From Clostridia bacterium (GTDB lineage: Bacteria > Bacillota > Clostridia > Oscillospirales > CAG-272), in the NCBI GenBank assembly GCA_017447775.1, contig JAFSMU010000030.1, positions 21,872-85,871 of the forward strand: a stretch of DNA of 64,000 nt. The letters are read 5' to 3'. Numbering within the stretch: the first letter of the stretch is position 1; the number at the start of each line of letters is the position of its first letter. Of this stretch, positions 1,889-63,406 are shown one piece after another. Under the pieces are notes generated by a model. The model saw only the letters and a program-made list of their open reading frames with translations, did no database searches and had not been told where the DNA came from. The translations under genes and the position numbers were made by a program.

Positions 1889-4276
1889 ATGAAAAAAATA
1901 ATAAAACGCACGGCCATAGCAGCGGCGCTGACGATTTTATGCGTCGTACTCGCGCTCTCGTCGGGCTTTGCCGTAATATATGCATATATCAGTAAAAACG
2001 TCGATGCGTCGCTTGATTTTGAGTCGCTGATGTCGGCAAAAGGACTTACAAGCACTATTGTGTACCTTGATGAAAACGGTCGGGAGCGGGAGCTTGTTCA
2101 GCTTCACGGAGCGGAAAACAGGATCTGGACTGATATCGAAAACGTCCCCGATCACGTCATCGACGCTTTTATATCAATTGAAGATCATCGCTTTTTTGAG
2201 CATGACGGAATAGACTTCAAACGCACTGTCGGTGCTGTCTTGAACTTCGCCGGGAACGGCGGCGGCTTTGGCGGCTCGACCATAACCCAACAGCTTATAA
2301 AAAACCTGACCGGCGACGATCAGAACACGATCAAAAGGAAAATACGCGAGATCCTTCGCGCCAAAGAGCTTGAAAAAAACGTTTCAAAAAAGGATATTCT
2401 CGAAGCGTATCTGAATACGGTTTATCTTTCAAACGGATGCTACGGCATTCAGACGGCGGCGGAGTGCTTTTTTTCAAAGGACGTATCAGAGCTTTCTTTG
2501 CCCGAGGGAGCGGCGCTTGCGGCAATACTGAAATATCCGTATAAATATGATCCGATAAGAAACCCCGAGCAAAACACGCAAAGAAGGAACACCGTTCTTT
2601 TGCGGATGTACGAGCTTGGCAAAATCAGCGAGGATGAATACAGCTCGGCGATAAGCAAACCGCTTGAACTGAACACCGTAAAAGAAAAAAACGCCTCGCG
2701 AAATTTATCGTGGTTTGAGGAAACGGTGATCGACGAGGTCGCCGACGCGCTGTGCGAAAAATACAAGTGCGATAAAAAGACGGCCATCAAGAAAATTTAC
2801 AGTGGAGGACTTAAAATCGTTTCCACGATAAAGCCGGATATCCAGTCGGCGCTTGAAAAAGTGTATGAAAACGAGAAAAACTTCCCCGCGTCGGGAGTCC
2901 TTACGCCGCCGGAATCAGCGTCTGTCGTGATCGATTCCCGCACGGGCGCGCTATTGGCAGTCGTCGGCTCGCGCGGCGAAAAAAAGTCGGACAGAATAAT
3001 GAATTACGCAACTCAGCTCACTCGCTCCCCCGGCTCCGTGTTGAAGCCGCTAAGCGTTTACGCGCCGGCGCTCGATAAGGATATTATAACGTGGGCAAGA
3101 GTTTACGACGACGTGCCTGTTCTTTTTGAGCAGACGGATGACGGATTTACCGCGTGGCCGAAAAACAATCCGAGAGTCTATTCGGGACTGACAAACGTAA
3201 ACCATTCGATTGAAAAATCCATAAACACAGTCGCTGTCAAAGTTTTGCGCGATCTCGGCATACGGGAATCGTATGAATTTTTGAAAAAACTCGGAATAAA
3301 AACGCTCACCGACGGAACAAAAAGCAAGGATGGCAAGTGGCTGTCGGATATCAGCGAAGCGCCGCTTGCACTCGGAGCGACGACAAACGGATGCACGCTA
3401 TATCAGGTCGCGGGCGCATATACGATGCTTGCAACTGACGGAACGTTCAGAAAGCCGCATTGCTTTACAAAAGTATACGACGACAAAGGCGAGCTGATTC
3501 TCGAAAATGAAACGGGCGGCGAAAGGATGATATCGGCGGAAAGCGCGGATATAATGACGAGAATGCTTGAAAACGTCGTCAAAAACGGCACGGCAAAAGG
3601 AATGAAAATATCCCAAAACGTGAGCGTTGCCGGTAAAACAGGCACGTCCAACTCAAATACCGACCGCTGGTTTATCGGATATACTCCCGATTATATCTGC
3701 GGCGTTTGGTACGGCTATATCGACGCGCGCGACATCGGCAATTTTTCAAAAAATCCCGCCTGCACTGTTTTTGATTCCGTCATGAGCGAAATATATAAAC
3801 TCACGCCGGAACTCTTGTCAAACGAATTCGAGAAAAGCAAAAACGTCGTTTCGTGCCTGTATTGCAGGGATTCCGGCTGCCTTGCCGACGCCGACTGCAT
3901 TCTCGATCCCAGAGGATCGAGGATAGAGCTTGGCTATTTCAAAAAAGGGACCGAACCGCAAAGTCATTGCGACGCGCACGTCTGCGTCGAATACGATGAC
4001 GGGGTGATTTGCGACGGCGCATTCCATTTTGATTCAAAAAAGGTCGCGCTCGTAAAAAATTATACAAGGTCGTTCCCTTGTCCCGTCACGGTTGAGGACG
4101 CGCAATATACGTACCGATACCTTTCCCCGCTTTATCCGCCAAACACAAGCGCCGACGGCGCATATTTTGACTCCCTTGCCGCCGACGGCGAGTATTTCGG
4201 CTGCTCCGGCGTCCAAAAAGCGTTCAATCGCTCCAAAAACCAAAGCAATGCGATCGAAGATCAACACGATGAATAA
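1889..4276 (+). CDS. Class A penicillin-binding protein (bifunctional GT51 glycosyltransferase / transpeptidase, PBP1A-type)
   Basis: 795 aa with an N-terminal TM anchor. GT51 motifs are EDHRFFEHDGID, GGSTITQQLIKN and RKIREILRAKELE. Transpeptidase motifs are SPGSVLKP (SxxK), SIN-type and KTGTS. The Cys-rich C-terminal extension is treated in findings. Confidence 0.93.
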   Translation: MKKIIKRTAIAAALTILCVVLALSSGFAVIYAYISKNVDASLDFESLMSAKGLTSTIVYLDENGRERELVQLHGAENRIWTDIENVPDHVIDAFISIEDHRFFEHDGIDFKRTVGAVLNFAGNGGGFGGSTITQQLIKNLTGDDQNTIKRKIREILRAKELEKNVSKKDILEAYLNTVYLSNGCYGIQTAAECFFSKDVSELSLPEGAALAAILKYPYKYDPIRNPEQNTQRRNTVLLRMYELGKISEDEYSSAISKPLELNTVKEKNASRNLSWFEETVIDEVADALCEKYKCDKKTAIKKIYSGGLKIVSTIKPDIQSALEKVYENEKNFPASGVLTPPESASVVIDSRTGALLAVVGSRGEKKSDRIMNYATQLTRSPGSVLKPLSVYAPALDKDIITWARVYDDVPVLFEQTDDGFTAWPKNNPRVYSGLTNVNHSIEKSINTVAVKVLRDLGIRESYEFLKKLGIKTLTDGTKSKDGKWLSDISEAPLALGATTNGCTLYQVAGAYTMLATDGTFRKPHCFTKVYDDKGELILENETGGERMISAESADIMTRMLENVVKNGTAKGMKISQNVSVAGKTGTSNSNTDRWFIGYTPDYICGVWYGYIDARDIGNFSKNPACTVFDSVMSEIYKLTPELLSNEFEKSKNVVSCLYCRDSGCLADADCILDPRGSRIELGYFKKGTEPQSHCDAHVCVEYDDGVICDGAFHFDSKKVALVKNYTRSFPCPVTVEDAQYTYRYLSPLYPPNTSADGAYFDSLAADGEYFGCSGVQKAFNRSKNQSNAIEDQHDE

Positions 4277-4464: not shown

Positions 4465-4638
4465 ATGCCTTATGTAATCGATGCCGATAAATGCCTCGGC
4501 TGCGGCGCTTGCGCAGATGCGTGCCCGGTTGGCGCTATTTCCGAAAAGGACGGCAAATACGTTATCAATCCCGACGAGTGCATTGAATGCGGCGCTTGCG
4601 CCGGCACGTGCCCTGTTGAGGCTCCCGAGCTTAAATAA
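4465..4638 (+). CDS. 2x[4Fe-4S] ferredoxin (57 aa)
   Basis: MPYVIDADKCLGCGACADACPVGAI...CIECGACAGTCPVEAP contains two CxxCxxCxxxCP motifs. AGGTGAGGAG precedes the ATG at 4465. The 5' part of track ORF 4288..4638 is rejected. Confidence 0.93.
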   Translation: MPYVIDADKCLGCGACADACPVGAISEKDGKYVINPDECIECGACAGTCPVEAPELK

Positions 4639-4793
4639 TTTCGGAATACGTATCAAAGAAGGACTCTCAAAGAGTCTTTTTTTGATTTTGGGGTTTATTT
4701 TTTTTCGTTGTTGTGATATATTATAATCCGAAATAAATAATTTTTGTGTTTTTGCATATAATTACCTTCTGAAGAATAATCGGAGGTGATTAA

Positions 4794-5975
4794 ATGAAAA
4801 ATGCCGTTATACCGGTTCTGCTTGGCGCCGATATGAACTGCTATAGCCTGGCGCGTGCTTTTCACGAGGCTTACGGTGTTAAATCGCACGTTTTCGGGAA
4901 AGTTGAGCTTGGAGCGATAAAGTATTCAAAGATAATACGTTTTACCAAAATACCGCCCCTTGATGAAACGGAAAAAGTGATCGACACACTTGTGGATTTC
5001 GCGAAAAATGCGCCCCAAAAGCCGTATATCTTCGGCTGTACCGACGAGTACGTCGTGTTCATTTCAAAATACAAAAGCGTTCTTGAAAAGTATTACGTTT
5101 GCGTATGCCCCGACAAAGAAACAGTTTGTGAATTTTCGGAAAAAGACAATTTTTACAAAAAATGCGCGGAATTGTCGATCAAATACCCCGAATACATCTG
5201 CTTAAACAAAACAGAAGACGCGGAAAAGCTTAAATCACCGCCTTTTGAATACCCGATTATAATAAAGCCGTCGTGTTCATATAAATACTGGTATCATCCG
5301 TTTGACGGAATGCAAAAAGTTTACGTTGCAAAGGACTTTGAGCAAGCAAAAGAAACAGTAAATAAAATTTACCTTTCCGGATACAACGGCAAAATAATAG
5401 CGCAAAAGAAGATAAATAACGCCACACAATACGTCGCAACATGCTATTCCGAAAACGGAAAAAATACTTTTTGCATCGGGCGTGTTCTTCTCGGCGAGGT
5501 TACGCCGAAAGGAGTAGGAAACCACGTCGCGATAATAACGGAAAATAATGATGATATAAAAGAAAACGTAAACCGTTTTCTTTCCGGAATAAAATACTGC
5601 GGCTTTTCAAATTTTGATATTCTGTGCGATGAAAAAAGCGGTAAATTATATTTACTTGAAATAAATTCAAGACTTGGCAGAAGCAATTATTATATGACTG
5701 CCGCCGGCATGAATCCCGCACGGATCGCGCTTGAAGGTAAATTCGATTTACCTCAAACGAGCATTTTCTGGCACTCTGTTCCGAAAAGCATAATTGTAAA
5801 GAATGCGTCGCCCGCCGATAGATCGCTGATCAAAGAGCTGTCAAAAGCAGGACGTGATTATTCAACGTTCTTTTACGGCCACGACCTTAAAAGCCCGATG
5901 CGTCTTGCATACGTTGCGGCGCATCAACTCGGCTTTTTTGCAAAATACAAAAAATACGGCTCGCTCGGTATATGA
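4794..5975 (+). CDS. ATP-grasp carboxylate-amine ligase (candidate D-aspartate ligase-like enzyme)
   Basis: 393 aa. The N-terminus is VLLGADMNCYSLARAFHEAYGVKSHVFGK, and the C-terminal part (YCGFSNFDILCDEKSGKLYLLEINSRLGRSNYY) fits an ATP-grasp fold (E-x-N metal-binding region). GGAGGTG lies upstream. It is coupled by a 4-nt overlap to the racemase gene. Confidence 0.7.
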   Translation: MKNAVIPVLLGADMNCYSLARAFHEAYGVKSHVFGKVELGAIKYSKIIRFTKIPPLDETEKVIDTLVDFAKNAPQKPYIFGCTDEYVVFISKYKSVLEKYYVCVCPDKETVCEFSEKDNFYKKCAELSIKYPEYICLNKTEDAEKLKSPPFEYPIIIKPSCSYKYWYHPFDGMQKVYVAKDFEQAKETVNKIYLSGYNGKIIAQKKINNATQYVATCYSENGKNTFCIGRVLLGEVTPKGVGNHVAIITENNDDIKENVNRFLSGIKYCGFSNFDILCDEKSGKLYLLEINSRLGRSNYYMTAAGMNPARIALEGKFDLPQTSIFWHSVPKSIIVKNASPADRSLIKELSKAGRDYSTFFYGHDLKSPMRLAYVAAHQLGFFAKYKKYGSLGI

Positions 5976-6679
5976 AAACGCTCGGTATTATCGGCGGTCT
6001 CGGTCCGCTTGCATCGGCTGAATTTTATAAAAAAATTTGCAAAATGACCGACGCGTCATCCGACAAAGAACACATTGATGCCGTTATCACAAGCTTCTCG
6101 TCAACGCCGGACCGCTCGGCTTTTATACTCGGAGAAAGCGATAAAAGCCCTTTGCCAAAACTTAAAAATGCACTTGCAACACTTGAGAGCTGCGGCGCCG
6201 AAGTCATTGTAATGCCGTGCAACACGGCGGACTTCTTTTATGACGAGCTTCACTTGCTTACATCGGCTGATTTTCCAAGCATTACGCGGGAAACGGTGGC
6301 GTATGCTTATTCTCGCGGCGCAAGAAAGATCGGGATAATAGCAACCGACGGAACGGTAAATAGCGCTATATATCACAGGCTTTGCAACGAATACGGCATT
6401 ACCCCGCTATTTCCCGATAAACGCGATCAAACTAAAATAGTAAATGATATTTACTCTATAATAAAGGCGGGAAATTCAGATGTAAAATCCGTTTACTGCG
6501 TAGCGATGTCATTGCTTGAAAAATGCGATAAGGTTGTATTTGCCTGCACGGAGCTATCTCTGATAGACATTTCAATGTGGCAAATCAAAAACAATATTAT
6601 TGACTCAACCGAAGTTCTCGCAAGACGTGCAATAGAGCTTTGCGGCGCAAAATTACGCGCCGAATACATAGAAAGATAG
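5972..6679 (+). CDS. Aspartate/glutamate racemase-superfamily enzyme (aspartate racemase-like)
   Basis: MKTLGIIGGLGPLASAEFYKKI at the N-terminus. Both catalytic Cys contexts are present (VIVMPCNTADFF and VVFACTELSLI). Confidence 0.85.
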   Translation: MKTLGIIGGLGPLASAEFYKKICKMTDASSDKEHIDAVITSFSSTPDRSAFILGESDKSPLPKLKNALATLESCGAEVIVMPCNTADFFYDELHLLTSADFPSITRETVAYAYSRGARKIGIIATDGTVNSAIYHRLCNEYGITPLFPDKRDQTKIVNDIYSIIKAGNSDVKSVYCVAMSLLEKCDKVVFACTELSLIDISMWQIKNNIIDSTEVLARRAIELCGAKLRAEYIER

Positions 6680-6689
6680 GGGGTAAATT

Positions 6690-8144
6690 ATGGTAAATAC
6701 AGACGGGATCGCGTCGATTCTCGGCGTTTCACCTTGCCGTATTAATATCGAAATTCAAGATATTACCTGTAATTCCAAAGAATGTGGCGAAGGGATCGCC
6801 TTTGCCGCGCTTGTCGGCGAAGAATTTGACGGCCATAATTTTGCAGATGACGCATATCTTCGCGGCACAAGAGTATTCTTCGTAGAACGTAAATTAAATT
6901 TACCCCAAGACTGCATCCAATTCATCGTTGATGATTCGCGCGCCGCGCTGTCATCGGTTTCCCTGTTCGTTCACCAAAACCCGCAAAAAAAATTAAAGCT
7001 TATCGGCGTTACCGGCACAAAAGGCAAGTCGACTGTTGTGCTGATGATACATAAAATACTGACAAGCATTGGCAAAAAAGCGATTTTTTCAAGCACTCTC
7101 GGCATAAATACCGACGGCTCGCTTTTCCCTTCTTTTAATTCAACTCCCGAAAGCGACGATATGGCAAGGTTCCTTTCAAGAGGTGTCGACTCGGGCGCTG
7201 AATATGCAGTTATCGAGGTTTCTTCTCAAGGAATAAAGCAGAAAAGAGTGGGCGCGTTAAAGTTTGACATTGGCGTTATGACAAACCTATCCCGCGATCA
7301 CATCGGGCGCGGCGAACACAGTGATTTCGCCGAATATATGACGTGCAAACAAGCTTTTTTTGAAAAGTGCAAATTCGGGATATTCAACGCTGATGACAAG
7401 TATTTTTCCGAGTTTTCAAATATATGCGAAGGTTCTTCGTACGGAATCAAAAACTCAGCCGACATTTCTGCAAAAAACGTTAAAATTGAGCGCCTGTCAA
7501 ACGATTTTCGCAGTGAATTTGACATTTCATCGCCCGGTCAAACGGCTCATTTTTCGCTCCCGATACCCGGAACGTTTGCCGTTTATGACGCGCTTGCCGC
7601 CGTCGGAGCGTGCATAAAACTCGGTATTCCCCTATCAAAATGCGCCGACGCGCTTTTAGATTTTCATATTGAAGGGCGATTTGAAAAAATAAACGTCGAG
7701 CGCGATATCGACATTGTTATAGATTACGCTCACAATGGAGAGAGTCTGAAAAGCGCTCTGAAAACCGCGCGACGACTTGCTCGCGGAAAAGTTGTTTGCG
7801 TTTTCGGTTCAGTTGGCGGGCGCACGGAAATGCGCCGCGCCGCTTTGGGAAAAGCCGCGGACAAATTTGCGGATGAATGTATTTTGACATCTGACAACCC
7901 GAATTTTGAAAATCCGCTTGACATTTTGTCAAAAATAGCGGATAATATAACGGGCGTGCCGTATAGAATAATTCCGGATCGCGAGGAAGCGATAAGATTT
8001 GCCATTGAAAACGCAGACGACGGCGATTTTATTCTTATATGCGGCAAAGGACATGAAAAATATCAGCTCGTCAGCGGCAATAAAATACCGTTTGATGAAA
8101 AGGAAATTGTAACTAGCGCATCAAAAATCAAAGCAAACATATAA
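6690..8144 (+). CDS. murE: UDP-N-acetylmuramoyl-L-alanyl-D-glutamate--diamino-acid ligase (MurE family), non-DAP (Lys-type) motif
   Basis: 484 aa with the Mur-ligase P-loop GVTGTKGKST, plus DYAHNGESL and a C-terminal GKGHE. The substrate-specificity tetrad reads DNPN (7893-7904) rather than DNPR. Confidence 0.85.
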   Translation: MVNTDGIASILGVSPCRINIEIQDITCNSKECGEGIAFAALVGEEFDGHNFADDAYLRGTRVFFVERKLNLPQDCIQFIVDDSRAALSSVSLFVHQNPQKKLKLIGVTGTKGKSTVVLMIHKILTSIGKKAIFSSTLGINTDGSLFPSFNSTPESDDMARFLSRGVDSGAEYAVIEVSSQGIKQKRVGALKFDIGVMTNLSRDHIGRGEHSDFAEYMTCKQAFFEKCKFGIFNADDKYFSEFSNICEGSSYGIKNSADISAKNVKIERLSNDFRSEFDISSPGQTAHFSLPIPGTFAVYDALAAVGACIKLGIPLSKCADALLDFHIEGRFEKINVERDIDIVIDYAHNGESLKSALKTARRLARGKVVCVFGSVGGRTEMRRAALGKAADKFADECILTSDNPNFENPLDILSKIADNITGVPYRIIPDREEAIRFAIENADDGDFILICGKGHEKYQLVSGNKIPFDEKEIVTSASKIKANI

Positions 8145-8159
8145 AACAAGGAGCTAACA

Positions 8160-9182
8160 ATGAAAAAATTTATTTTATCAGAGGGCGGCGAATTCAGAAA
8201 GCTGAATCTTCACTGCCACAGCAAAGACTGTTCCGACGGTAGACTTACGCTTGCGGAGCTTAAGGATTTTTACAAATCTCATGGGTATGCCGGCGTTGCG
8301 TTTACCGATCACAACGTTCTTATTGATCACAGCGATCTTTCCGACGATGATTTTATTGCCATAACCGGCACTGAGATAAACTTCGACTGCACAACCGATC
8401 CAAAAGGCGCGGAACGTTGCTACCACATAAATCTTCTCGCAAAAAAGCCGGACAATACCGCCCTTGTGTGCTATAACCCGAAATATATAAATATGGTAAG
8501 CAGCAAGCAGTATATCCCCACGCAAAAATACGTCGGGACGCCCGATTTTGAACGTGAATACACAACGGAGTGCATCAACCGCTTTATAAAAGAAGCGAAC
8601 AACCACGGTTTTCTTGTTACATATAATCATCCGCGCTGGTCAATGCAGACGTGGGAAGACTATAACGGACTTCGCGGCCTTTGGGGCATGGAAGTCAACA
8701 ACGGCGACTGCTATCGCTATTGCGGCAGACAAGATCTTAACGAGGACATCTACGACTGGTTTTTGCGCCACGGAATAAACATTTCCCCTATTGCCGCCGA
8801 TGACAACCACGATATTCGCCCAATGGGACATCCGAAATTCGACAGCGGCCTTTCGTGGGTCATGGCAAAAACGGAAAAGCTCGATTATGCATCAATAATG
8901 GACGCTCTCGAGTCGCGCAATTTCTATTCGTCAAACGGTCCGGAAATATACGAGTGCTACGTTGAGGACGGATATATCCACGTAAAAACTTCCCCGTGCG
9001 AGTTTATCCGCGTAAACACGCAGCTGCGCGCCGTAAAATCCGAGTGCGGAGAAAAGCGCGGCGAGCCTGTTACGGAATGCCATTTTGAAATACCCGAGAA
9101 CGCCAAATATGTCCGCGTAACAGTTACTGACTTTGACGGCTCAACAGCGTGGACAAACGCGTTTTACGATCTCAAAGATTAA
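8160..9182 (+). CDS. PHP-domain metal-dependent phosphoesterase family protein
   Basis: LNLHCHSKDCSDGRLTLAELKDFYKSHGYAGVAFTDHN is the PHP motif I/II pattern. Later motifs are YNHPRW and AADDNHD. AAGGAG lies upstream. Confidence 0.65.
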   Translation: MKKFILSEGGEFRKLNLHCHSKDCSDGRLTLAELKDFYKSHGYAGVAFTDHNVLIDHSDLSDDDFIAITGTEINFDCTTDPKGAERCYHINLLAKKPDNTALVCYNPKYINMVSSKQYIPTQKYVGTPDFEREYTTECINRFIKEANNHGFLVTYNHPRWSMQTWEDYNGLRGLWGMEVNNGDCYRYCGRQDLNEDIYDWFLRHGINISPIAADDNHDIRPMGHPKFDSGLSWVMAKTEKLDYASIMDALESRNFYSSNGPEIYECYVEDGYIHVKTSPCEFIRVNTQLRAVKSECGEKRGEPVTECHFEIPENAKYVRVTVTDFDGSTAWTNAFYDLKD

Positions 9183-9281
9183 GATATCAAATAAAATGAA
9201 GAAGCGGTGAGAAAACCGCCCGTTTCAAACGACTAATTTGCAACAACGATTACGGCGAATGATAAAAAAAGGAGGTCAAAA

Positions 9282-10943
9282 ATGAAAAAAACGATTTGTT
9301 CCTTTCTTGCCGTAATATTTCTGACTGCGACGCTTGCGTCGTGCCAGCTTTTCGAGCAGGTAGAAACGTCTTCGACAACTCCAAGCAATGCCATTGTTAC
9401 AGAGCCGTCCACGTCGACTGCATCGACACAAACCACGCCGCAGTCGTCGGAAGCGACGACCGCCGCGCCGTCGACCGGTCAGACGTCGGAGTCTACCGCG
9501 ACGGAGCAGACGACTGTCGTCACCGAACCGAGCGCAACAACAGAGGATACGTCGTCGACCGTGCCGACCGCAACGACTGAGCCGACCGGCACCACTCAAG
9601 GTTCGGTCACTCCGATGCCGCCTCAGGGGGCGGGCGGGATATCGCTCACAAGCGTTGCCGATCTGTTTGATATCGTCAAAAACGGAGAAAATGCAAAAGC
9701 GATCAAGTATTTATCAGCATCACAAGAAAAATACAGAGTATATTTCAAAAAAACTTTCGGGCTCATTTCCGAACTTGAATTTCCTGTTTTCCCGACATTT
9801 GATGGAAATATTGACATCTTGAGAGATGATTCGTCGATCCATATCTTCCCTCATGCGAACGACAGGTTTGAACTTATTTTTAATTTTGACTACGACGGTC
9901 GCACCGGCAATATTTTCATATTTACGCTTGACTGCGACGTATCGAATCAGAAGAATGCCGCGGCAAATGTCCTCGGTGAAACAAGGACGGTTTACTATAG
10001 TGAGCATTTCGGAGACAATAGCTTTTACACCAAGATGTATTTCAAATACAACGACGTTTGGATAGTGATGGACGTTCACGGTGTAAGTTATGAAAAAGCG
10101 ATCGAATACCTCGAAAAGCTCGGCTTCGCTGATGTCAAGGACGCCGTTTACACAGCGGACAAGGGTTTGAAAAAGCAGTTAAGTGAAATATGCGTCCTTC
10201 CTACTGACATAGGATCTGCTTATGAGGACGACGACGCCGTTTGGTTTGCCGGCGACGCCAGCGACATTCAAAACAACCGCACAAGAGCATTCGGGCTGAA
10301 AAATGGCGAAACATTCTTCGGCTTTGACGTTGATATCAAATATCGGTTCGACACGAAAAAAATAGCCCTCGATGTATTCGCGTTCGATACGGACGCGGAA
10401 ACCGGCAACAGTATCGACGTAGATATAGCCGAACTCGGAAATTATTACAAATTACTCGGTATCAACGTTTGCTTTTGGAATGATAAACTGACGATCCTTC
10501 CCGATGTTGAAGATATCGAAATGCTCGAAAGCATGAAAATAAAAGATCACGAAAGCTATCGTATCGGATATTTTCTCGCTGCGTTGCCTTTGAATAACCC
10601 CGACAAATCAAAGCTCAACACCAATGACGGTTATAAAGTCGTTTTGAAAAAATGCAATTTCGGAGAAATAGCATCTGCAAAAAGCATTCTTCTCGAAAAA
10701 GGCGATGATTTCGACGAAAAAGACGTTGAACTTTTCGCCCGTGAGATAGAAAAAGCATATTGGAAAAAAGTTCTCGCTTACTACGGGATAAAGGACGAAC
10801 AAATCGTTGGATATTCCGACTGTTCGTCGCCGATGGACATCATGACCGTCACGCTTGAGCTTGACGAGAGCCAGCTTGAAACGATGTCAAATATCGACGG
10901 ATATATCACGCAGATAGCGACAGCTTCAAACGCTTTTGAATAA
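9282..10943 (+). CDS. Lipoprotein of unknown function with a long S/T/P/E-rich tether
   Basis: The signal peptide plus lipobox is MKKTICSFLAVIFLTATLASC. About 100 aa of low complexity (TSSTTPS...TEPTGTTQGS) are followed by a roughly 430-aa globular part with no motif I recognise. AAGGAGG lies upstream. Confidence 0.8.
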   Translation: MKKTICSFLAVIFLTATLASCQLFEQVETSSTTPSNAIVTEPSTSTASTQTTPQSSEATTAAPSTGQTSESTATEQTTVVTEPSATTEDTSSTVPTATTEPTGTTQGSVTPMPPQGAGGISLTSVADLFDIVKNGENAKAIKYLSASQEKYRVYFKKTFGLISELEFPVFPTFDGNIDILRDDSSIHIFPHANDRFELIFNFDYDGRTGNIFIFTLDCDVSNQKNAAANVLGETRTVYYSEHFGDNSFYTKMYFKYNDVWIVMDVHGVSYEKAIEYLEKLGFADVKDAVYTADKGLKKQLSEICVLPTDIGSAYEDDDAVWFAGDASDIQNNRTRAFGLKNGETFFGFDVDIKYRFDTKKIALDVFAFDTDAETGNSIDVDIAELGNYYKLLGINVCFWNDKLTILPDVEDIEMLESMKIKDHESYRIGYFLAALPLNNPDKSKLNTNDGYKVVLKKCNFGEIASAKSILLEKGDDFDEKDVELFAREIEKAYWKKVLAYYGIKDEQIVGYSDCSSPMDIMTVTLELDESQLETMSNIDGYITQIATASNAFE

Positions 10944-24221: not shown

Positions 24222-24272
24222 AATAAAACAAAAAAGCGCTCTTTCGAGCGCCTTGGCTGCGGAATAGGGATT
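24222..24272 (-). repeat. Direct-repeat copy 2 (overlaps the 3' end of the intact tRNA-Gln and its terminator)
   Basis: Identical to 24051-24101. The repeat period is 171 nt. Confidence 0.85.
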
Positions 24273-24327
24273 CGAACCCCAACAAACAGAGTCAGAGTCT
24301 GTCGTGCTGCCGTTACACAATTCCGCA
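24254..24327 (-). tRNA. tRNA-Gln (anticodon CUG), CCA encoded
   Basis: The rc reads TGCGGAA TT GTG..CAC G ACAGA CTCTGAC TCTGT TTGT TGGGG TTCGAAT CCCTA TTCCGCA G CCA. It has a 7-bp acceptor with U1-A72, the anticodon loop C-U-CUG-A-C, a canonical T-arm and a G73 discriminator. Confidence 0.9.
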
Positions 24328-47847: not shown

Positions 47848-48429
47848 ATGGAAAAGAAAAACATCATCTATTGGGTCATAATTGTAGCACTTGTGATAGT
47901 TCTCACTATTTTTCTTGTACTGTTAATCAACCAAAATACCGAAAAAGCATCCAAGCCGGAAAGAACCACATACGTTTTGCCGCCCAAAACTGTTATTTGG
48001 CTTTTCGATTCTACAGTTGAAGAATTTTTTGTGAAAGACTTTGCTTTTAATCAATATTGTGAAGATTATCGAAAACACGCTTTGGTAGATAATGACGGCA
48101 ATCTTGTTCTTAAACTTACAAAAGATCAAGAAAACGGTATGTTAGTTTGGCTAGGCGACCGTTCGGGACGCGCAAGAAGTGCGGGAATGGAAATATCAAA
48201 CGACTATACTCATATTACTTATGTTTGCACTGCAAAAGAGTTTATGAATAATTATCCGTTTTTGCTTCACTATGAACTCGGATTCAGACAACTGTTTTCC
48301 GGCAAAGATCCTGCATCAATCAGAATCACTTATACAATAATTGGAAAAACAACAAATAAGGTTATTTATGATGTGACTTGGCCGGAAAGTGAGTTGGTTT
48401 TCGATTCTCGGAATCCCGATTGGTATTGA
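47848..48429 (+). CDS. Hypothetical membrane-anchored protein in an AT-rich islet
   Basis: 193 aa with an N-terminal TM helix (IIYWVIIVALVIVLTIFLVLLI). No recognisable motif. It is clearly more AT-rich than its neighbours. Confidence 0.6.
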   Translation: MEKKNIIYWVIIVALVIVLTIFLVLLINQNTEKASKPERTTYVLPPKTVIWLFDSTVEEFFVKDFAFNQYCEDYRKHALVDNDGNLVLKLTKDQENGMLVWLGDRSGRARSAGMEISNDYTHITYVCTAKEFMNNYPFLLHYELGFRQLFSGKDPASIRITYTIIGKTTNKVIYDVTWPESELVFDSRNPDWY

Positions 48430-63331: not shown

Positions 63332-63406
63332 CGAGGTGTGGCGCAATGGTAGCGCGCTTGCTTTGGGAGCAAGATGCTGCAGGTTCAAATCCTGTCACTT
63401 CGACCA
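63332..63406 (+). tRNA. tRNA-Pro (anticodon UGG), CCA encoded
   Basis: CGAGGTG TG GCGC AATGGTA GCGC G CTTGC TTTGGGA GCAAG ATGCT GCAGG TTCAAAT CCTGT CACTTCG A CCA. It has C1-G72, G37 and a full cloverleaf. 75 nt. Confidence 0.92.

Follow-up and report, generated by a model that had tools for sequence, protein, structure and literature searches.

Among described systems, two come closest, the Lactococcus lactis operon racD-aslA and the Enterococcus faecium gene pair rac-asl(fm), which encode the D-aspartate ligase (EC 6.3.1.12; Bellais 2006 and Veiga 2006, cited in PMC4155827 and PMC13631041). The diamino acid at position 3 of the stem peptide is added by a different enzyme, MurE. In Escherichia coli MurE, Arg416 of the DNPR motif binds the distal carboxylate of meso-diaminopimelate (meso-DAP), and the L-lysine-adding MurE of Staphylococcus aureus lacks that arginine and reads DNPA. 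The DNPR arginine is not the sole determinant of MurE specificity (PMC3829189).

Here we describe a locus that joins these activities in one unit. It lies in a 64-kb window, the whole stretch of DNA analysed (64,000 nucleotides), from an uncultured gut Clostridia bacterium that is a spore-former. As in the racD-aslA and rac-asl(fm) systems, the ligase, an ATP-grasp enzyme of that family (linked through its Lactobacillaceae members), adjoins a two-cysteine Asp-type racemase, and the pair is predicted to place a D-Asp branch on the position-3 side-chain amine. The differences are several. Ligase identity to the lactic acid bacterial proteins is only about 30%, and the host, unlike L. lactis and E. 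faecium, belongs to a spore-forming lineage of Clostridia. Gene order is ligase then racemase, whereas the racemase comes first in Latilactobacillus curvatus, the one lactic acid bacterial pair examined. MurE sits inside the unit, whereas the L. curvatus murE is about 11 kb away. Also unlike the L. lactis and E. faecium systems, the window holds no asnB/asnH-like amidotransferase by tblastn. Table 1 lists the features.

Table 1. Features of the ligase-racemase-murE locus, in window positions.
Feature	Position	Strand	Remarks
Class A penicillin-binding protein (PBP1A family), upstream, context only	1889..4276	+	missing at this position in L005 and L012
Hairpin GGACTCT-CAA-AGAGTCT followed by T-run	4661..4690	+	just 3' of ferredoxin gene (4465-4638); probable intrinsic terminator
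AT-rich leader	4713..4789	+	two weak sigma-70-like matches (4713-4741, 4751-4780) and ribosome-binding site
ATP-grasp carboxylate-amine ligase, 393 aa	4794..5975	+	predicted D-aspartate (branch) ligase, AslA/Aslfm family homologue
PLP-independent two-cysteine amino-acid racemase, 235 aa	5972..6679	+	predicted aspartate racemase
MurE (UDP-MurNAc-L-Ala-D-Glu : diamino-acid ligase), 484 aa	6690..8144	+	DNPN replaces DNPR; predicted non-DAP residue adder
PHP-domain (CehA/McbA-like) metallohydrolase, 340 aa	8160..9182	+	15 nt past the murE stop, AGGAG site in front

The trio is tightly packed on one strand. The ligase stop and racemase start share ATATGAAAAC at 5970-5979, which gives an ATGA overlap at 5972-5975, and 10 nt separate racemase and murE at 6680-6689 (TAG ggggtaaatt ATG); every one of these coordinates agrees with the preliminary description. 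The unit has its own ribosome-binding site, GGAGGTGA at 4782-4789, as read from the sequence. Both sigma-70-like matches in the leader are agreements with the consensus, 9 of 12, and are not evidence of function. The hairpin probably separates the trio from upstream transcription; an automated scan returned its stem (4662-4676) on the minus strand only, and the plus-strand terminator reading comes from the T-run by eye. A search with Rfam models returned two tRNAs and no riboswitch or T-box leader in the window. The PHP hydrolase gene, a fourth gene overlooked in the preliminary description, starts 15 nt past the murE stop with an AGGAG site in front, so the hydrolase is probably co-transcribed with the trio in a four-gene unit. 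Among the loci examined, it adjoins the trio only in one close relative (L005), which places it outside the conserved unit.

Genes spoVAC-spoVAD-spoVAEb lie directly upstream, the annotated genes between 16 and 41 kb are housekeeping genes, and a tblastn search of the whole window with MurE as query gave no second Mur ligase; the trio is thus outside a dcw cluster, as had been proposed. Two close relatives, L005 and L012, lack the PBP1A-family gene at this position.

Family calls made earlier for the three proteins hold up. The ligase matches Pfam ATP-grasp_3 weakly but above threshold (30 bits, cut-off 23.2), the racemase matches Asp_Glu_race at 107 bits and retains both cysteine contexts (VIVMPCNTA and VVFACTELS), and MurE contains Mur_ligase, Mur_ligase_M and Mur_ligase_C and scores 395.1 bits against TIGR01085 murE (cut-off 257.3). 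The ligase matches Lactobacillaceae proteins named D-aspartate ligase over its full length and the next ATP-grasp group far more weakly, in keeping with the original assignment.

The ligase is, as judged by sequence, a full-length homologue of the lactic acid bacterial D-aspartate ligase family at ~30% identity. Its family profile aligns with a profile of Lactobacillaceae proteins, which are named rather than assayed as D-aspartate ligases, at 100% probability (hhalign, E 8.3e-99, 403 columns), end to end and including the C-terminal extension. By BLASTP it is 31% identical (E 1e-61) to a Pediococcus pentosaceus protein that JGI names D-aspartate ligase, as UniRef appears to do; two members of the ligase's own family, P0031 and P0040, carry the same JGI name. 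In a plasmid collection, this family matched at E 1e-45 to 1e-50 and the next ATP-grasp group at E 1e-11. Homologues also occur in Limosilactobacillus fermentum (30% identity) and in L. curvatus, where aspS and a gene for an amino-acid racemase are its neighbours; when the L. curvatus protein served as query, the matches listed were from Lactobacillaceae only.

Structural modelling is consistent with an ATP-grasp fold. The AF2 model has a pLDDT of 90.6, and in a Foldseek search of the PDB, biotin carboxylases and L-amino-acid ligases matched it with probability 1.0; these fold matches are generic ATP-grasp hits (TM about 0.55-0.6), uninformative on substrate, and a sequence search of the PDB gave no relative of the ligase. 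K158, E289, N291 and R293, which include the E-x-N-x-R block, are invariant across 30 homologues, and the protein is predicted to keep its nucleotide- and Mg-binding residues intact. Contigs of a Subdoligranulum variabile assembly carry the ligase-racemase pair, and the sole MurE of that assembly in the contig collection searched is of the DNPR type in a dcw-like setting, so the ligase family is not strictly tied to a non-DAP wall.

The racemase is predicted to be an aspartate racemase. It scores 171.6 bits against TIGR00035 (cut-off 93.1), and its best solved relatives are aspartate racemases, led by the Pyrococcus horikoshii enzyme (PDB 1JFL/2DX7; 1jfl, E 1.5e-39, residues 1-223). Its cysteines in VMPCNTA and ACTELS align with the catalytic pair Cys82 and Cys194 of 1jfl, and the residues aligned with Arg48 and Lys164, which we take to bind the aspartate side chain, are kept as well; a literature search returned no support for the roles of those two residues. 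Unlike the window racemase, the P. horikoshii enzyme is archaeal and stands outside any wall-synthesis context. A cysteate racemase model, CuyB, scores 179.7 bits, just below its cut-off of 190, which weighs against the aspartate assignment.

MurE lacks the arginine that binds meso-DAP in E. coli MurE. The window protein has the P-loop GVTGTKGKST, and its DNPN aligns with the E. coli DNPR, placing asparagine at the Arg416 position. Across 72 aligned MurE proteins linked to the ligase, the window's included, the motif is DNPD, DNPN, DNPG, DNPA, DDPD or DDPN, and arginine occurs in none; aspartate is the residue in most relatives. DNPR is the motif in every DAP-type reference (Bacillus, Fusobacterium, Monoglobus dcw and Subdoligranulum dcw). 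The window protein is without this signature of a meso-DAP-adding enzyme. In having three Mur ligase domains and no DNPR arginine it resembles S. aureus MurE (PDB 4C12/4C13; DNPA there, DNPN here), from which it differs in belonging to a separate clade, most members of which have an acidic residue there (DNPD).

Profile and tree evidence places these proteins apart from the known L-lysine ligases. The window MurE passes the NCBIfam 'DAP ligase' equivalog (420.7 bits, cut-off 373) and falls short of the L-Lys ligase equivalog PRK14022 (324.3 bits, cut-off 536). In a neighbour-joining tree, the 72 linked proteins form their own clade with no reference inside, nearest to DAP-type Firmicute MurE and farther from those of S. 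aureus and L. curvatus. Membership in the Bacilli L-Lys MurE clade is therefore not indicated; the PRK14022 result counts against that membership, not against lysine addition. Given the DAP-type nearest clade and the PRK14022 score, lysine specificity rests on one motif. The predicted substrate is a non-DAP residue, most likely L-Lys. Asparagine or aspartate at the Arg416 position suits a pocket that receives a positively charged side chain, be it Lys or Orn.

The three-gene arrangement is the norm, not a rarity, in uncultured Oscillospirales. Among the best 80 species-level loci of at least 582 matching stretches, 61 carry ligase, racemase and MurE, 10 carry ligase and MurE with no racemase within about 6 kb, and 8 carry ligase and racemase with no linked murE, an arrangement found in the Subdoligranulum/Ruthenibacterium clade. 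The ligase-racemase pair is thus kept in 69 of the 80 and a linked MurE in 71. In a dcw cluster, murE has a pbp/spoVD gene upstream and murF-mraY downstream. In none of those 71 do murF or other dcw genes lie beside the trio, and no trio locus contains a further Mur ligase; by contrast, related Clostridia have a DNPR MurE in the Monoglobus dcw cluster and in the dcw-like setting of S. variabile. A literature search found no paper describing the arrangement, in keeping with the preliminary claim that it is undescribed; in sequence data it is not unusual, being present in 71 of the best 80 loci. Literature searches likewise found nothing on a Lys-D-Asp wall in Ruminococcaceae or Oscillospiraceae, and the searchable literature yielded no report on the wall chemistry of related gut species with the unit. 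In a 2024 review, Ruminococcus, Oscillibacter and related gut genera have no peptidoglycan type assigned (PMC11382707).

We read the trio as a Lys(or Orn)-D-Asp peptidoglycan branch cassette, with a probability of about 0.6. One operon would set both stem-peptide position 3 and the side branch. MurE would add a diamino acid other than meso-DAP, most likely L-lysine, to UDP-MurNAc-L-Ala-D-Glu. The racemase would convert L-aspartate to D-aspartate, and the ATP-grasp ligase would activate the D-Asp beta-carboxyl as an acyl phosphate and join it to the position-3 side-chain amine on the nucleotide precursor. A transpeptidase would later cross-link through the D-Asp amine, giving an A4-alpha (Lys-D-Asp) wall like that of L. 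lactis and E. faecium.

Several lines argue for this cassette. The genes are tightly packed and translationally coupled, with their own ribosome-binding site behind a terminator-like hairpin; the ligase matches the Lactobacillaceae D-aspartate ligase family end to end; the L. curvatus homologue lies beside a racemase, matching the L. lactis racD-aslA operon (PMC4155827); and among solved structures, aspartate racemases come nearest to the racemase. The DNPx arginine is missing from all 72 linked MurE proteins, and linkage is conserved in 61 plus 10 of the best 80 loci. The 60 muropeptides that one study of mouse gut microbiota peptidoglycan targeted and quantified include Lys-type ones bearing Asp or Asn (PMC9942837), which is consistent with such walls. 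The Lys-D-Asp assignment of the preliminary description thus gains a D-Asp-ligase homologue, an Asp-type racemase, a MurE without the DNPR arginine and linkage across dozens of species; against it, the linked MurE clade is unrelated to known L-Lys ligases. Gene structure, family relationships, the absent MurE arginine and the conserved linkage are observed; which diamino acid, which D-amino acid and which acceptor take part is inferred from them.

The same logic may serve another chemistry, a possible but unlikely reading in which L-ornithine (A4-beta) or even meso-DAP (A4-gamma) occupies position 3, or a different D-dicarboxylic residue such as D-Glu forms the branch. The wall of Limosilactobacillus fermentum, which has the homologue at 30% identity, is Orn-D-Asp. 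Where the racemase is absent within about 6 kb (10 of 80 loci), D-Glu from MurI could serve, and a linked MurE clade unrelated to known Lys ligases leaves room for a different position-3 residue, as does the Subdoligranulum/Ruthenibacterium pairing of ligase and racemase with no linked murE, with its DNPR dcw-type MurE in S. variabile. Translational coupling of the window ligase to an Asp-type racemase argues against a different branch, and asparagine (window) or aspartate (most relatives) at Arg416 fits a cationic end, a criterion that does not separate Lys from Orn. Less probable still is that the trio provides a second precursor pathway, used under particular conditions, beside a dcw-linked DAP-type MurE, for instance with vegetative wall and spore cortex built differently. 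The host is a spore-former with spoVAC-spoVAD-spoVAEb directly upstream, none of the 71 loci in which MurE is linked places the trio beside murF or another dcw gene, and DNPR dcw-type MurE proteins are known in related Clostridia. Lysinibacillus (Bacillus) sphaericus, likewise a spore-forming Firmicute, offers a precedent, with a Lys-D-Asp vegetative wall and a meso-DAP spore cortex; the wall predicted here is Lys-D-Asp as well. Such a pathway is compatible with the branch cassette and would merely add another MurE.

A product other than peptidoglycan is scarcely credible. Mur-ligase and ATP-grasp folds also serve cyanophycin and poly-gamma-glutamate synthesis, and the ligases here might in principle make another polymer or metabolite containing D-amino acids, with cyanophycin synthetase as a weak match. 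That match reaches no more than 134 bits (cut-off 850), whereas on the MurE models the protein scores 395-421 bits, above their cut-offs, and none of the three domains is missing, the UDP-binding N-terminal one included.

The trio stands apart modestly in base composition and strongly in divergence. GC is 0.411 in the ligase, 0.442 in the racemase and 0.446 in MurE, where the window as a whole averages 0.484; for GC3 the values are 0.437-0.445 against 0.554 +/- 0.068, about -1.7 SD per gene, and returns to 0.545 in the gene after murE. The trio is thus AT-richer than its flanks, as had been noted by eye, to a modest degree. An accessory origin, which that observation had hinted at, is unsupported as a recent acquisition: a recently acquired island is very improbable. 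The GC3 deficit, the lower identity of the trio to L005 (46-62%, flanking genes 68-93%) and a conjugative Bacillus mycoides plasmid that carries an Asl-like gene and a racemase are what would favour it. Against it, the ferredoxin-trio-PHP slot is filled likewise in L005 and L012, most of the 80 related species carry the trio, its borders show no mobility genes, repeats or tRNA, and the window, L005 and L012 trios are mutually equidistant (55-61%), so that no lineage stands out as recipient. We rejected the island on the grounds that relatives keep the slot.

Sequence divergence in the trio greatly exceeds that of the flanking genes. We tentatively entertain, at rather low probability, an independent origin, with the trio acting as a self-contained module for the wall chemotype. 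Its MurE clade would have arisen in Clostridia, apart from the Bacilli Lys ligases and mostly with an acidic DNPD pocket. The module would diverge much faster than the flanking genes do, either by recombinational allele replacement or under diversifying selection, exerted for instance by phage lysins or host peptidoglycan sensors.

The enzyme kinds are already known, and the recurrence of the three-gene unit across related gut species is the modest new part. Ligase-racemase-MurE without arginine in the DNPx motif provides a genomic marker that would predict a branched non-DAP wall in at least 71 species-level uncultured Oscillospirales genomes, the total being probably hundreds. Automatic annotation labels linked MurE proteins 'DAP ligase', a name to be treated with caution. 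If most trio-bearing Oscillospirales have Lys-D-Asp walls, a large uncultured part of the gut Clostridia would be Lys-type, not the DAP type usually assumed. Host receptors tell DAP-type from Lys-type fragments, and Lys-type gut Clostridia, if real, would be relevant to NOD1/NOD2 signalling.

Sequence evidence points, with a probability we put at roughly 60%, to the trio being an operon that would set stem-peptide position 3 and the branch together, giving a Lys (or Orn)-D-Asp wall. MurE would place a non-DAP diamino acid at position 3, most likely L-Lys and possibly L-Orn, the racemase would supply D-Asp, and the ATP-grasp ligase would attach it, on the nucleotide precursor, to the side-chain amine of the diamino acid. 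The D-aspartate ligases (Asl) AslA of L. lactis and Aslfm of E. faecium are described as catalyzing this last reaction (PMC13631041, PMC4155827). We draw the link to the Asl family through Lactobacillaceae proteins named D-aspartate ligase.

The trio is compact and probably part of a four-gene transcription unit. All three plus-strand open reading frames lie exactly where the preliminary description placed them, and the sequence bears out both of the junctions it had reported: an ATGA at 5972-5975 in which the ligase frame ends and the racemase frame begins, and a 10-nt spacer, with GGGG inside, between the racemase stop and the MurE start. Upstream, the hairpin and T-run are followed by an AT-rich leader carrying two weak promoter-like matches and then the ribosome-binding site GGAGGTGA. 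Downstream, the PHP gene starts 15 nt past the MurE stop behind an AGGAG, which makes co-transcription of the trio with the PHP gene probable; the preliminary description had not included this fourth gene. The only gathering-level Rfam matches in the window are two tRNA genes, and Rfam found no riboswitch or T-box leader ahead of the trio. No other Mur ligase is encoded in the 64 kb and the annotated genes at 16-41 kb are housekeeping genes, so the unit stands outside a dcw cluster, as first proposed.

Coordinates of the trio, its neighbors and the tRNA genes in the window
Feature	Position	Strand	Description
Ferredoxin gene	4465-4638		2x[4Fe-4S], 57 aa; immediately upstream of ligase gene
Terminator-like hairpin and T-run	4661-4690		3' of ferredoxin gene
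ATP-grasp ligase gene	4794-5975	+	ORF, 393 aa
Racemase gene	5972-6679	+	ORF, 235 aa
MurE gene	6690-8144	+	ORF, 484 aa
PHP-domain hydrolase gene	8160-9182		CehA/McbA-like, below cut-off
tRNA gene	24257-24327	-	Rfam gathering-level match
tRNA gene	63332-63403	+	Rfam gathering-level match

Gut-metagenome scaffolds such as ENA ERZ28653718 scaffold_84 (240 kb) encode the identical ligase protein, with the same neighbors as in the window. These include a spoVAC-spoVAD-spoVAEb operon, and the host is thus an uncultured spore-former. A ferredoxin gene directly upstream of the ligase recurs at nine homologous loci (L005, L006, L008, L012, L014, L017, L024, L025 and L058), in lineages with a ligase identity of only 41-56%.

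The MurE of the trio is genuine and lacks the arginine that marks DAP-type enzymes. Its assignment to the MurE family stands (TIGR01085, 395 bits), and at the position of the E. coli DNPR motif it carries DNPN. The DNPR arginine (E. coli Arg416) hydrogen-bonds the distal carboxylate of meso-DAP; the Lys-specific S. aureus MurE has no such arginine, with DNPA instead and a negatively charged Lys pocket, and specificity does not depend on the motif alone (PMC3829189). We aligned 72 linked MurE proteins, those encoded beside the ligase at 71 loci and in the window, with references using MAFFT. Arginine appears in none of the 71 (DNPD in 55, DNPN and DNPG in five each, DNPA in three, DDPD in two, DDPN in one). 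Among the references, DNPR is found in Bacillus velezensis, Monoglobus (dcw), Subdoligranulum (dcw) and Fusobacterium, DNPA in S. aureus and DDPG in L. curvatus. In a simple neighbor-joining (NJ) tree the 72 linked proteins form a single clade that includes no reference; DAP-type Firmicute MurE proteins lie nearer to it, and the Lys ligases of Bacilli farther away. As judged from these sequences, the clade thus lost the arginine independently, and homology gives no basis for assigning it Lys specificity. No second Mur ligase was found at any trio locus. The window MurE passes the NCBIfam equivalog NF001126 'DAP ligase' (420.7 bits against a threshold of 373) without the DAP-binding arginine, and automatic pipelines probably mislabel the whole linked clade.

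The racemase is predicted to act on aspartate. Its best solved relatives are aspartate racemases (1jfl, E 1.5e-39), and alignment to 1jfl confirms that both catalytic cysteines are retained, as the preliminary description had it. Residues aligned with Arg48 and Lys164 of 1jfl, which we take to bind the Asp side chain, are also conserved. The protein also scores just below cut-off on a cysteate-racemase model, so the assignment to aspartate is tentative.

Family comparison connects the ligase to D-aspartate ligases. It is above cut-off, weakly, for Pfam ATP-grasp_3; no solved relative was found by sequence, and a confident AF2 model (pLDDT 90.6) matches the fold of ATP-grasp enzymes in general. 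In a plasmid collection that includes mislabelled chromosomal pieces, Lactobacillaceae proteins matched at 28-30% identity, with 92-99% of the length covered (E 1e-45 to 1e-50). They were the only strong non-clostridial matches there from bacteria with Lys/Orn-D-Asp walls. A split Bacillus mycoides plasmid gene scored comparably (32% identity, E 8e-45), and the next ATP-grasp group reached only E 1e-11. Within the Lactobacillaceae family, NCBI and UniRef use the name D-aspartate ligase for Ligilactobacillus sp., and JGI uses it for Pediococcus pentosaceus and other members; JGI also extends it to two members of the window ligase's own family. The preliminary description had likened the protein to such ligases, and profile-profile comparison of the two families upholds this with a full-length alignment of 403 columns (probability 100%, E 8e-99). 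Gene context agrees in kind: the L. curvatus homologue lies 3' of aspS and an amino-acid racemase gene. In L. lactis, aslA and the aspartate racemase gene racD form one operon, and lactobacilli with Lys-D-Asp walls carry aslA, which DAP-type L. plantarum lacks (PMC4155827). At two further loci asnB is the immediate upstream neighbor, in Lactobacillus crispatus of the Asl homologue (L094, 4030-7284) and in Collinsella aerofaciens of murE (L100, 2721-6275); this adjacency may mark an amidation step linked to branch or stem enzymes. The window holds no asnB homologue.

The arrangement is conserved across uncultured relatives. Homologues at 43-57% identity had ligase, racemase and MurE together in every case looked up, in differing neighborhoods. 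We scanned a GTDB-based collection with one genome per species, in which the best match to the ligase reaches only 56% identity, and analyzed the best 80 of at least 582 relatives. Nearly all of these 80 are MAGs whose label stops at Clostridia, Eubacteriales or Oscillospiraceae, and Ruthenibacterium, Flemingibacterium and Avispirillum are among the few with a name. The full trio in the same order occupies 61 of the 80 loci, ten have ligase and MurE with no racemase between them, eight have ligase and racemase without MurE (four of them with more than 5 kb left past the racemase), and one meets a contig end. Ligases from the MurE-less loci form one NJ clade, and pairs without a linked murE belong to Subdoligranulum, Ruthenibacterium and relatives (L028, L032, L048, L052, L078).

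Three rivals to a Lys (or Orn)-D-Asp operon carry more than marginal weight, and two of them keep its wall-branch logic. The chemistry may differ, with Orn or DAP as acceptor, or D-Glu as donor at the racemase-less loci. In its favor, contigs of one Subdoligranulum variabile assembly (L095, OY725879.1; L096, OY725839.1) carry both a murE-less ligase-racemase pair and, next to murF in a dcw-like setting, a MurE with DNPR. For the MurE-less clade this pattern suggests that the D-Asp branch may be placed on meso-DAP, or else a second wall type. The trio may also coexist with a second, DAP-type MurE that would serve the spore cortex. Lysinibacillus sphaericus is a precedent for a DAP-type cortex beside a Lys-D-Asp vegetative wall.

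The third rival, a recent island, follows from the accessory origin hinted at for this segment, and we reject it. The AT-richness behind that hint is true but modest: GC3 of the trio genes is 0.437-0.445 against 0.554 +/- 0.068 for 55 window ORFs, about 1.7 SD below the mean; in the PHP gene it is back at 0.545. Two related loci, L005 and L012, likewise hold the ferredoxin gene and then the trio in this slot, and neither mobility genes nor a tRNA flank the trio. The PHP gene follows in L005 (89% identical), has no match in L012 and is absent beside the trio in more distant relatives. Elsewhere in the window, an ORF at 47848-48429 (193 aa) has GC 0.364 and GC3 0.325, z about -3.4 against the rest, and is possibly foreign or spurious.

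The trio has nonetheless diverged more than its surroundings. Between the window and L005 (8001-11348), identity is 55% for the ligase, 46% for the racemase and 62% for MurE, against 68-93% for eight flanking genes. DNA identity is about 0.5-0.6 over 4850-7650, climbs to 0.71-0.73 over the final third of murE (from around 7650) and is about 0.8 within the PHP gene. Among the window, L005 and L012, the trio is equally distant in each pairing. Comparing locus L009 with L011 and L016 gives a weaker result in the same direction (trio 79-89%, most flanking genes 89-98%), with the exception of the flanking EamA gene, as divergent as the trio at 80-81%. The pattern suggests either that alleles were replaced while the slot stayed fixed or that wall chemistry evolved fast. 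Separately, the conjugative 546-kb Bacillus mycoides plasmid pl546 (L104, CP067054.1, locus 7980-9956) carries an Asl-like gene in two ORFs, then an overlapping amino-acid racemase gene, with a lipid II flippase Amj gene nearby. Because this plasmid holds both, it shows that the ligase-racemase pair can be mobile.

The enzymes are of known kinds, and their pairing follows the known racD-aslA logic. Unlike racD-aslA, the window unit has a different gene order, includes a dedicated MurE from a separate, independently derived non-DAP clade, is broadly conserved, and belongs to a host group without a listed peptidoglycan type in a 2024 review (PMC11382707). We found no description of the ligase-racemase-MurE arrangement in the literature searched, in keeping with the earlier suggestion that it was undescribed in clostridial lineages. 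Rather than revealing a new mechanism, the trio is of use for predicting wall chemotype from genomes.
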